A DNA stretch of 64,000 nucleotides from the NCBI GenBank assembly GCA_039595375.1, contig JBCNLQ010000011.1, positions 10,684-74,683 on the forward strand, given 5' to 3'. The notes under the pieces are model-generated. The model was not told the origin of the DNA. It did not search any database and saw only the letters and a list, made by a program, of their open reading frames with translations. This DNA comes from Chryseobacterium sp. (GTDB lineage Bacteria > Bacteroidota > Bacteroidia > Flavobacteriales > Weeksellaceae). Shown in pieces: positions 41,086 through 52,888 of this stretch (the first letter of the stretch is position 1; each line of letters opens with the position of its first letter). The position numbers and the translations under genes are program-made.

Positions 41086-41583
41086 TTATCTACATATAGG
41101 ATATAATATAGGTTTAAAGTCATCGCCCTCTTTTAAATATGTCTTTTTATTGTTTGATGTTATGACCCTTTTATTATAAAAATTAGGTTTAACAAACCCT
41201 AAATAAAATTTGTTTATTTCTGAAGGCAGTTTCATAATTATCAGATTTTTGTTCTCATTTCTTTGAATATACGAACACTCTCCAATACTAATACTATTTT
41301 TTTGCCTATCTTTTGAACTAATAAAACCAATTCCATCATCATTATATAAGAAAATCTGATGATTTTCAATTGCTCTTTGAATATTCTTTGTAGATTCCAA
41401 CAAATCTTCACTCAAAATGAACTTGCCATCATATCCTTTAATCATTATTATAATTGGCTTATTTATAGTAACAGTGTCTTTAGTTACATAAGACTCGCCT
41501 AATGATTGAGAGAATAATTGATTACTTAAAATTAAAAGCAAAATAATGAAAATAAATTTATTCGGCTTGTTGTATACTTCCAT
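41086..41583 (-). CDS. Putative immunity protein 3 (exported)
   Basis: 165 aa, AT-rich, signal peptide (LFS|Q), directly downstream of toxin tip 3. Function inferred from position. Confidence 0.6.
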   Translation of the reverse strand: MEVYNKPNKFIFIILLLILSNQLFSQSLGESYVTKDTVTINKPIIIMIKGYDGKFILSEDLLESTKNIQRAIENHQIFLYNDDGIGFISSKDRQKNSISIGECSYIQRNENKNLIIMKLPSEINKFYLGFVKPNFYNKRVITSNNKKTYLKEGDDFKPILYPICR

Positions 41584-41611
41584 TTCTAAATCTTTTATAT
41601 TCTTTATCTGT

Positions 41612-42405
41612 TTACAAATTATTATTTTGAATATGAATAGTTGCTTGTCCTAATCCACCTGTAGCAGTTTTAGCTTTATTAGGTTCTGAAGGAGTACCGA
41701 TAATAGCATTCATAACATCTGAGATATTAGAAGAAGTAATATCATTTGATCGATTAGGATCACCAGAAGAAGTCGTTAGAATACCACTCGTAGTGTGATC
41801 CGCACCAAGAGTATGACCTACTTCGTGAGCTCCAGTTTCGCTATCTGCTCTAGAATCTTTGACTCTTATACTATTTCCTCCTGCTGTAACTCCATTATCA
41901 CCAGATTCCATATCTTTTGCTGCTGCTACTCTATAAATATTACCTTCTCCCTTAGTTGCTGATTCCATTTGCTTTATTGAGAACATCTAAGCGTTTTTCA
42001 CCTTTACCAACACTTACTTCAGATGTTTGTAAGTCAAACTTAATTTTCATAGACACATCTTTGCCATTTGCATCTCTATAAGTGTAATTATACTTACCAC
42101 TCACATCATTCCGCATTTTTACTGCTTGATTAGCTGATTTCATATCATTCGCTGTAGCATAATAAGTTGCTTTTATTGTAACAGTTCCTGTTTTGAAATC
42201 AATATACACACCATAATCTCTACCATCATAATCTACAAACATTGCAGGATTGTTGCCTGCGTAGGTGTATGGTGACATTCTTCTATACTTCTCCGCCAAC
42301 GGATCCACCACACCCCATCTCCCGATATCCGGCATATAAAACCTTGCTCCATAATCATACATTCCCGTTTCCTGTAGCTCCTTACCGTTGTACTTGTAAT
42401 TAAAT
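41612..42405 (-). pseudogene. Orphan Rhs core plus metallopeptidase toxin tip 3, frameshifted
   Basis: [35 protein letters not shown]...[11 protein letters not shown]; reading frame shifts near 41975; downstream frame has HEVGHTLGADH. Confidence 0.8.
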
Positions 42406-50600: not shown

Positions 50601-51245
50601 ATTATAATTATGTTGAGCAGATACACCCGAGATATCAATTTTCATATTACTATCATCAGAAAATATTAAAGGAATTCCATCATTACCAATATAGAAATAT
50701 CCATTTTTTCCCATGAAACTAAAACTATACTTGTCTGATACAAGTTCAGCATATCCTCCATATCCTCCATTATTTAAAATATCAATCGTTGCTCTATAAT
50801 TGGTACCCTGTGTAAAATTTCCTCTGTAAATATCACTATTGGTTTTTGAATATTTTCTTAATCCTACCAAGTAGCCCTTTACTCAACCGCTGTAGTGGTC
50901 AAGATCATCTGCAACGCCTCTTACCTCACGTGTAATTGCGCCACCATAATTTAAGAACCAGTTTAACCCAACGTAATTCGATCTTTTTGCAGGAATAAAT
51001 CCAGAAGAATTATAACTTAAATTCATTAAAAAGCTTTTGCCAGAGCCAGAAATATTGGCAGAAAACAAAGGAATTGATAGATCAATTCCTCCGACATTCA
51101 TGTTGACGGGAATATTTCCGTACCTCTCCATCTCATAACTTTGAGGTGATTTTACACTTAAAGGTACTATTTGACTACAATAAAATAATGTTATAATGCA
51201 GCTGCATACAATTAACATCTTTCTAATAATATTTGTGTTCATCAT
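47636..51245 (-). pseudogene. YD-repeat protein with signal peptide and DUF5977-like domain, split into three ORFs
   Basis: In-frame TGA at 50883-50885 and a +1 shift at the A5 run 50188-50192; motifs YGNIPVN, LSYNSSG, VGLNWFLNYGGAITR, IGGARIKKI, YDPLIGVRSITSPNG, VPAGIYFS...A...A..EI..NGQ..AN..GSC. Confidence 0.85.
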
Positions 51246-52888
51246 TCTTTCACGATTTTAGCAGTTAGTTTTTTGTTTTGTGTTTTGGCCGTTACCACAT
51301 ACATGCCCTGTGGCAGTTTAGCCGTATTGATTTTCGTAATCGGATTATTTGTTCTCAAAGCCTGGACTTGTCTTCCGCTCATATCTGTCAGCACAATCTC
51401 AGTCTCAAGCTCCCCTCCTTCGGAGGGGCTGGGGGAGGATAATTCCACATAGCAGTAATCCTTCACCGGGTTTGGGTAGATTCTCAGGTCACGGTGCTCC
51501 GCCAGGTCTTCCAAAGCCTTGCCGCCCAGTTTCACCACCTTCCAGTTCTCTTCGCCCAGCTGGTCTGCGCTCGTCCCTGCCAAGAGGTAGCTGCCGTCCC
51601 TTTGAAACTTGGCACTCACCAGCCGCTCCTCATTCTTCTTTTCCTTGCCTTCCACATACTGGCGCCATTCTTCTTTGCCATTTTGGTCAATGTAAAGCAT
51701 CCAGAACTTCTCATCATCCTTCTTCACTTTTTCCTCAGTCTGAGTGTAACCCCCGAGCAGGAAACCTTTGGTTGTTTCTTTATTCTTTTCTCTTTGTTCT
51801 TTAATCTCACTCACGCTCATCACCACATCCCGGTTCCCGAAATTGTAAGACTTCTGCCAGAGTTCATTGCCCTGTTTATCAAGATTCATTAGCCATAGAT
51901 CGGTTCCTTCCTTAACATTGTCTTTCTTGTTGCCGGATGACGGGCTGGTGGTTTCACCTGCTACCAGGTAGCCGGTATCGGTGTAAGCCACGCTTTTCGG
52001 GCGGTCATCACCGCTGCCGCCATAGGTTTTCTGCCATTCCACCTTGCCGGTTTTGTCCAGCTTTAAGATCCAGAAATCCCCGGCGCCAAAGTTGTCTTCG
52101 GTTTTTAGTTGTCGGTGGATGGTTGTTGGTTGATGGTTTGCCATAAAAATGTCATCATTGGTATCAATCACGGATACTTTATCATTCATCTTCTGACTTG
52201 TTGAATATATAAGCACAACAGCACCGCCGTCCGGGGTGGCGATCATATCCGTCACTTCGTCCACGGAAGTGCCGCCAAGAATCGTGGTCTGTTTCAGTTT
52301 TCCGTCTTTGTCCAGCTTGGAAACAAACACATCCTTCGATCCGAATGCCCTGGAACCCGGAGCAGAAACAAATGATCCTGCCACAAAGAAGCCCTGGTCT
52401 GTAGACTGCACAATGGCAGAAGCCTCGTCATTGCTTTTCGTGCCAAAGGTTTTCTGCCAAAGCTCGTTCCCATTCTCGTCCAGGCGGAGCATCCAGACAT
52501 CGCTGCCGCCCATATTATGGTCTTTCTTGTCGCCCGATTGGTTAGAAAATGATGTCCCTATAATTGCGAAACCGCCTTCCTGCGTGGCAACAGAGCTCAT
52601 CAAATAATCGTGTCTGGAACCGCCGAAATACTTTTCCCACACTTTCTGACCTTGCTGATTCAGTTTGAGGAGATGATAGTCGTAGCCGTTGTTGGTGGAT
52701 GGTTGTCCGTTGCTGGTTGAGGGACTTTGGATTGAACTTCCCGAGAGAAGAATTTGTCTGTCAATAGTAGAAGTCATCGTGGTAAGGAGATCCTGGGTAT
52801 TGGATGCGATATCCCGCTGCCAGCTGACCTGTTGGCTATAGGAATAGCCCATAGCGAGGATTCCTATGCTTATGCAGAGTTTTTTCAT
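51242..52888 (-). CDS. T9SS type-A CTD cargo protein with beta-propeller-like repeats
   Basis: Signal peptide (YS|Q); repeated D.W..KLD..G...W(Q/E)K.(Y/F)GG units; C-terminal LRIYPNPV...GMYVV...KIVKE. Confidence 0.88.
   Translation of the reverse strand: MKKLCISIGILAMGYSYSQQVSWQRDIASNTQDLLTTMTSTIDRQILLSGSSIQSPSTSNGQPSTNNGYDYHLLKLNQQGQKVWEKYFGGSRHDYLMSSVATQEGGFAIIGTSFSNQSGDKKDHNMGGSDVWMLRLDENGNELWQKTFGTKSNDEASAIVQSTDQGFFVAGSFVSAPGSRAFGSKDVFVSKLDKDGKLKQTTILGGTSVDEVTDMIATPDGGAVVLIYSTSQKMNDKVSVIDTNDDIFMANHQPTTIHRQLKTEDNFGAGDFWILKLDKTGKVEWQKTYGGSGDDRPKSVAYTDTGYLVAGETTSPSSGNKKDNVKEGTDLWLMNLDKQGNELWQKSYNFGNRDVVMSVSEIKEQREKNKETTKGFLLGGYTQTEEKVKKDDEKFWMLYIDQNGKEEWRQYVEGKEKKNEERLVSAKFQRDGSYLLAGTSADQLGEENWKVVKLGGKALEDLAEHRDLRIYPNPVKDYCYVELSSPSPSEGGELETEIVLTDMSGRQVQALRTNNPITKINTAKLPQGMYVVTAKTQNKKLTAKIVKE

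Follow-up and report, generated by a model that had tools for sequence, protein, structure and literature searches.

How do Rhs toxins leave cells of Bacteroidota that lack a type VI secretion system (T6SS)? The question is raised by an operon of Chryseobacterium sp. (family Weeksellaceae; NCBI GenBank assembly GCA_039595375.1), which lies in a stretch of 64,000 nucleotides (contig JBCNLQ010000011.1, positions 10,684 to 74,683 of the forward strand; hereafter the window). The operon occupies the minus strand from 52888 to 41086 and encodes a beta-propeller protein with a type IX secretion system (T9SS) sorting domain (gene 1), a YD-repeat protein (gene 2, the middle gene), and an Rhs toxin with a DUF6443 domain (gene 3), followed by further toxin tips and candidate immunity proteins. 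We lean towards reading it as one copy of a conserved Bacteroidota toxin module, in which a cocoon resembling that formed by TcB and TcC of the toxin complexes (Tc) carries metallopeptidase tips and is linked through the propeller to the T9SS, independently of the T6SS; this copy is probably inactive.

Analysis of the open reading frames (ORFs) and profile matches of the window shows a compact gene string: genes 1 and 2 overlap by 4 nt, 11 nt separate genes 2 and 3, and the next junction is again a short overlap. The tightly coupled operon described in a first-pass annotation of this DNA, with its propeller, YD/DUF5977 protein, DUF6443-Rhs and tip/immunity pairs, was recovered gene by gene. 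Signal peptides were judged by eye, and the Sec signals ending before Gln that had been ascribed to all three large proteins were seen again; the Gln (Q19) is nearly invariant in the middle-protein alignment. The 548-aa product of gene 1, whose signal peptide ends before Gln-Gln, contains about seven SBBP-type propeller blade repeats (NCBIfam SBBP lipoprotein model, E 2e-13) and ends in the sorting domain (Por_Secre_tail PF18962, E 6.5e-12; TIGR04183, E 2.1e-12). It is the only one of the three with the features of T9SS cargo (a Sec signal plus a C-terminal Por_Secre_tail). Pfam and NCBIfam scans of the window ORFs found no sorting domain on the middle protein or the Rhs and no PAAR or VgrG on either, in agreement with the annotation.

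The signal peptide of gene 3 is followed by DUF6443 (aa 28-160, E 3.4e-31), a YD shell with RHS repeats (PF05593, E 7.9e-7), and an Rhs core (aa 927-983) that scores 31.8 bits against TIGR03696, just under the cut-off of 32.5. Residues R949, D954, and D962 of the core are invariant in 12 homologues, and the final DPxG motif is altered. The tip, from about aa 990, contains HExxHxxGxxH, the metzincin zinc motif. Two orphan tips follow, making three metzincin-like tips, each succeeded by a small exported ORF that is a candidate immunity gene. Orphan tip 1 repeats the last ~60 residues of the Rhs core; orphan tip 2 is probably a single frameshifted gene.

Gene neighbourhoods were surveyed in 150 Weeksellaceae genomes and in a scan covering Chryseobacterium, Bergeyella, Kaistella, Epilithonimonas, and Cruoricaptor, which used the closer alignment set A4, sets A2 and A3 being too divergent. 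In the 150 genomes all long DUF5977 ORFs immediately precede a DUF6443 gene, and the order propeller, middle gene, Rhs is kept in 14 of the 16 loci that were fetched. The scan found the full trio at 54 of 60 Weeksellaceae loci with enough upstream DNA, and some Chryseobacterium-type genomes carry up to ~10 copies of the module. The three genes grouped by the annotation thus co-occur across genomes as a unit, far beyond chance. Both exceptions among the 16 loci belong to genus g40, in which two ORFs of unknown kind stand in for the propeller (L010:2937-4865 and L011:2398-4808); the middle protein of this genus has two to three tandem DUF5977 domains.

The association is as close when viewed from gene 1, which is single-copy in this genome. 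Its close relatives (50-78% identity) in the 150 genomes sit 3-5 kb upstream of DUF6443 genes, also where DUF5977 is absent, and a strong DUF6443 match is present in each of the 28 sampled genomes whose best match to gene 1 (P0001) falls below E 1e-90. This marks the propeller as a dedicated partner of DUF6443 loci and not generic cargo.

Beyond the family, DUF6443 was found in 27 of 300 Bacteroidia genomes, and the middle gene lies directly upstream of the Rhs gene at all 19 loci fetched from other families. In two loci, L030 (1-6357, >2,100 aa) and L031 (1636-10080, 2,814 aa), a single polypeptide combines the middle protein and the DUF6443-Rhs, with DUF6443 where the two meet; by the gene-fusion argument, such natural fusions indicate that the two proteins act together. 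A 2,683-aa Rhs (L029:3403-11454) was also seen beside a separate middle gene. What precedes the pair in these families is more varied. L018 has a full-length gene 1 homologue, L025 and L032 encode other type A sorting-domain proteins, and L035 has a sorting domain of type B (CHU_C; E 5e-19) in its upstream protein; L033 gives a faint type A signal, five loci have unrelated proteins of 450-570 aa, and four have no same-strand gene in this position. The Chryseobacterium genome has 76 type A sorting-domain matches in 3.35 Mb, or ~2.5% of genes; the occurrence of two types of sorting-domain genes upstream of the pair in several families exceeds this background, and such a gene is not obligatory.

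The products of genes 2 and 3 were compared with known folds through AlphaFold models. For the middle protein we used an intact same-genus homologue, P0006 (1,192 aa), with 67 homologues, which gave a predicted local distance difference test score (pLDDT) of 84.5 and a predicted template modelling score (pTM) of 0.79. Its best Foldseek matches in the PDB are TcB chains and TcdB2-TccC3 (E ~1e-18, TMq 0.37-0.39), and template modelling (TM) scores against T6SS Rhs proteins and TcC chains are 0.10-0.15. The model of the window Rhs (pLDDT 70) is confident in the shell (aa 22-945) and not in the tip. Its scores are TMt 0.64-0.66 against TcC chains, TMq 0.48 against TcdB2-TccC3, TMq 0.52 against mosquito SGS1, and 0.13 against TcB alone, and the shell aligns with those of Rhs proteins, Tc toxins, and teneurins at E 1e-16 to 1e-26. 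These reciprocal fold matches, together with the strict adjacency of the genes and their natural fusions, speak for the earlier proposal that the two YD proteins form a heteromeric cocoon in the manner of a Tc BC pair.

In the sequenced strain gene 2 (~1,210 aa) is split into three ORFs of 119-120, 229, and 865 aa by an in-frame TGA (50883-50885) and a frameshift inside 50181-50233. YD-type repeats and DUF5977 (E 3.8e-20) are found in the last piece; relatives in which the protein is intact have 940-1,380 aa. Both lesions are also present in a Logan assembly of run SRR28582080, which over 8,256 nt is 100% identical, so they are not an artefact of one assembler. Gene 2 is disrupted here, and this copy of the operon is probably inactive. 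Whether it is a decaying relic without present function, whatever the family does elsewhere, we regard as an evenly balanced matter. The lesions of gene 2 recur in that independent assembly, orphan tip 2 is probably frameshifted as well, fragments of an IS3 transposase adjoin the cluster, and the genome has only this one DUF6443 and one DUF5977 locus; yet two of the tip/immunity pairs are undamaged, as are genes 1 and 3, and the Logan assembly may come from the same read set as the deposited one.

The middle-protein family is large: at E 1e-30 or better it comprises 2,754 clusters (50% identity). In pairwise comparisons of 71 trios (from L001-L115), propellers differ on average by 0.31, Rhs shells by 0.49, and middle proteins by 0.76; the middle protein, with a mean identity between loci of about 24%, is hypervariable, between a propeller and an Rhs shell that are conserved. 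In the same trios, propeller and Rhs shell distances correlate (Mantel r 0.57), and those of the middle protein scarcely correlate with the propeller or the Rhs (r 0.10 and 0.19). A metagenome contig (L118, 11645-12637) shares 96% identity with the window through gene 1 and loses all DNA similarity ~25 nt into gene 2, and the last ~100 residues of the window gene 2 are ~90% identical to those of a same-genus homologue that is otherwise 20-30% identical. This pattern suggests cassette exchange, with the middle gene behaving as a swappable cassette, which would fit a recognition role better than a purely structural one. Middle proteins of the family loci that lack DUF5977 end directly after the last YD repeat, so DUF5977 and the end domain may be regarded as an optional appendage; DUF5977 has previously been classed as a stalk domain of adhesin-like proteins.

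Many Bacteroidia proteins of 1,400-2,600 aa have an N-terminus in common with the middle protein, over its first ~120 residues (~100 matches; e.g., L116:1152-7322 and L117:760-5121); judged from sequence, this is a shared, undescribed module. An assignment of this module to SpvB was considered and rejected for want of Pfam support; the two large proteins of L116 and L117 that share it likewise match no Pfam family.

If the pair is a cocoon, how is it exported? The genome assembly (3.35 Mb, 68 contigs, 95.9% complete) encodes SprA, and no secretin was found in it, so a type II secretion route was rejected; profile searches also found no VipB, PAAR, VgrG-type gpD, or TssD in this genome. The T9SS is the only dedicated outer-membrane exporter found, which favours a link between the module and this system. 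Genome-wide co-occurrence of DUF6443 with the T9SS has no discriminating power, SprA being present in 294 of 301 sampled Bacteroidia (the SprA and middle-protein match tallies take in two unpublished genomes, G244 and G329, and no specific claim rests on either). The annotation had also drawn attention to the T9SS core genes gldKLMN ~10 kb away. They are indeed present at 26218-31253, but their proximity is probably incidental, because relatives carry up to ~10 copies of the module scattered around the genome.

Our proposal is that the TcB-like product of gene 2 and the TcC-like product of gene 3 most likely form a two-subunit YD cocoon, which would house the C-terminal metallopeptidase tip once the Rhs protein had cleaved itself at its core. 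The tip would act in the envelope or periplasm of rival bacteria, since each tip precedes a small immunity candidate that is exported or has a lipoprotein-type signal, and the spare tip/immunity cassettes downstream would permit tip replacement. The propeller most likely couples the capsule to T9SS-dependent export or surface display, because it occurs essentially only beside these loci and carries the sole T9SS sorting domain; this is the weakest step of the scheme. A role of the propeller as capsule carrier is plausible, the argument being an associative one from adjacency and the elimination of other known exporters. We also considered, as a rather speculative extension, that the T9SS-anchored propeller replaces both the gate propeller of TcB and TcA and caps or docks the cocoon at the cell surface, giving a contact-dependent Rhs weapon in which the TcB-like subunit, hypervariable and optionally extended by a DUF5977 stalk and an end domain, would be a swappable target recogniser.

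Several observations weigh against a T9SS-coupled, Tc-like capsule. The sorting-domain partner is missing in g40 and in about two thirds of the other-family loci, and Bacteroides thetaiotaomicron, a control genome, matches DUF6443 and neither SprA nor type A sorting domains. Binding of the propeller to the capsule is a candidate interaction, associative in kind and drawn from gene context, and in this strain gene 2 is disrupted. The BC cocoon of a Tc toxin measures, once assembled, ~100 x 130 Angstrom and the lumen of SprA ~70 Angstrom across, so passage of a pre-assembled capsule through SprA is doubtful. The TM-scores of the middle protein to TcB are only moderate, neither single-sequence nor profile searches of PDB sequences matched it to TcB or any other solved structure, and no SpvB or TcdB_toxin_mid Pfam domain was found in the window ORFs or in four intact homologues. 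With no sequence similarity to TcB and no such domain, the resemblance to Tc toxins is, as far as the models go, one of architecture and not of family membership.

Some of these points would be accommodated if the capsule left the cell without the T9SS, for instance in outer-membrane vesicles or by lysis, and the propeller were separately secreted by the T9SS as a surface adhesin or target-binding helper that replaces TcA. The sorting domain is confined to the propeller, the middle-Rhs pair lacks any sorting-domain gene in many lineages, and the size of the cocoon relative to the SprA lumen points the same way. A 'Yd repeat protein', at most a putative homologue, is listed in the vesicle proteome of R. 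anatipestifer and gives a hint. Nevertheless, the dedicated propeller is tightly linked to the pair and has diverged in step with the Rhs shell (Mantel r 0.57), and we judge this explanation on the whole unlikely, though a serious alternative to T9SS coupling.

The annotation had allowed an antibacterial or an anti-eukaryote role for the toxin. The exported immunity candidates point to the former, and a Tc-like toxin directed at insects, nematodes, or protists appears very improbable. The fold does resemble TcB/TcC and mosquito SGS1, but an exported immunity candidate accompanies each of the tips and there are orphan cassettes, which are hallmarks of interbacterial polymorphic toxins. The locus contains no candidate for a TcA partner, and TcA_TcB_BD (PF18276) had no match in the genome, in a search whose control genomes were also matchless and which thus had no positive control.

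The T6SS called for a suitable marker. The VipB profile PF05943 matched none of 151 Weeksellaceae genomes, as against 37 of 151 for TssD (PF17642); PF05943 is insensitive to the Bacteroidota T6SS in this family, a negative VipB result is unreliable, and TssD was used in its place. Among 52 sampled family genomes with a strong DUF6443 match, 33 have no TssD and 19 have it; the 33 include the complete genome whose trio is closest to this one (G138). TssD was detected in all five sampled g40 genomes with DUF5977 or DUF6443 (G040, G074, G094, G123, and G147), as well as in G109 and G136. The module does not depend on a T6SS: the absence of T6SS parts noted at the outset holds for this genome, and TssD is missing from most relatives as well. 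That the Rhs is cargo of the Bacteroidota T6SS (T6SSiii), like classical Rhs effectors, can be set aside as extremely unlikely, for although TssD occurs in those 19 relatives and in all sampled g40 genomes, which have no sorting-domain gene, this genome and G138 have the trio without it, VipB, PAAR, and VgrG were not found here (PF05943 being uninformative in Weeksellaceae), and all three proteins have Sec signals, normally absent from T6SS cargo.

Features of the operon and its T9SS context are listed in Table 1. At the downstream edge of the toxin island, two short ORFs (40523-40917) resemble fragments of an IS3-family transposase, adjoined by a MiaB/MtaB-like gene (39102-40460). A BamH-family protein (33224-34828; NCBIfam E 6e-38, under its cut-off) and glmS lie between the island and gldKLMN. 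The guanine-plus-cytosine content is strongly mosaic in 44000-53000, at 44-49% in the propeller gene and Rhs shell, 31-36% in the middle gene, and 27-31% in the tips and immunity genes.

Table 1. Coordinates of the toxin operon and associated features in the window
Feature	Position	Strand	Basis or remark
Gene 1, Sec-exported SBBP-like beta-propeller of ~7 blades with C-terminal type A T9SS sorting domain (aa 470-546)	51242..52888	-	Pfam/NCBIfam
Gene 2, TcB-like YD shell protein containing a single DUF5977 and, C-terminally, a beta domain; disrupted	47636..51245	-	ORFs 50883-51245, 50181-50870, 47636-50233
Gene 3, TcC-like DUF6443-Rhs toxin with metzincin-like HExxHxxGxxH tip	44109..47624	-	1,171 aa; profiles and model
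Immunity candidate 1, small protein with lipoprotein-type signal	43685..44134	-	weak similarity to immunity candidate 2
Orphan tip 1, copy of the Rhs core 3' end and second metzincin-like tip (HEDGH...)	42843..43646	-	
Immunity candidate 2, lipoprotein-type signal	42431..42859	-	
Orphan tip 2, overlapping frames for an Rhs core fragment (41952-42362) and a reprolysin-like HEVGH tip (41612-41986)	41612..42362	-	
Immunity candidate 3, signal peptide with Gln after the predicted cleavage site	41086..41583	-	matched no family
Terminator-like hairpin, bidirectional, 13-bp stem, closing the cluster	41006..41034	.	
T9SS core genes gldK, gldL, gldM, gldN (context only)	26218..31253	-	proximity probably incidental

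The nearest known counterparts are the Tc BC pairs, such as Photorhabdus TcdB2-TccC3 and Yersinia YenB-YenC2. As there, two adjacent genes encode a B-like and a C-like subunit, whose folds match TcB and TcC in reciprocal fashion; the latter bears a putative Rhs core autoprotease and a variable toxin tip, and natural B-C fusions occur. Unlike the Tc systems, the Chryseobacterium module has no detected TcA, all its parts have Sec signal peptides, its B-like protein is ~450 aa shorter than TcB and hypervariable, and it adds a DUF6443 module, immunity genes, orphan tips, and a separate T9SS-sorted propeller upstream. The T6SS Rhs effectors (RhsA, Tse5, and RhsP) share the YD shell, a probable Rhs core, and polymorphic C-terminal tips with immunity genes and orphan tips; they differ in that PAAR/VgrG and a T6SS are missing from this genome, Sec signal peptides are present, the shell appears to be split over two proteins, and fold matches are low (TM 0.11-0.36). 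Teneurins and bacterial teneurin-like proteins also associate a YD shell with a beta-propeller, but in a single polypeptide, and their fold matches are weaker (TM 0.08-0.24). The TANFOR polymorphic toxins of Bacteroidetes have likewise been proposed to use the T9SS, with an unrelated carrier domain, no YD cocoon, and no separate sorting-domain partner (PMC7073777).

The first-pass annotation knew of no earlier description of such a system. Adjacency of Rhs genes and T9SS cargo genes had in fact been noted twice. In Porphyromonas gingivalis 381 the largest Rhs gene is preceded by PGN_1817, a T9SS cargo gene (PGN_1817/1818), and the locus was induced 3.5-114-fold along with T9SS genes; its authors suggested a 'possible mechanistic linkage' (PMC6775972). 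The rhs genes of Apibacter mostly adjoin type A sorting-domain genes, and T9SS association of Rhs was thought 'probable' (PMC8125069). These loci resemble ours in gene order, with an Rhs directly downstream of a type A sorting-domain gene. Neither the 2019 nor the 2021 paper offers a structural reading, an experiment, a three-gene definition, or the Tc-like architecture. DUF6443 is mentioned in none of the literature searched, and a preprint on the Chryseobacterium T9SS secretome does not mention Rhs.

We know of no T9SS cargo that carries partners lacking a sorting domain. If the propeller does couple a Tc-like capsule to the T9SS, it would represent a new mode of cargo recruitment for this system and a previously unrecognised way of delivering polymorphic toxins among Bacteroidota of soil, of the gut, and of animals. 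Our survey defines the three-gene unit and identifies intact relatives free of a T6SS, in which the coupling to the T9SS is directly testable.

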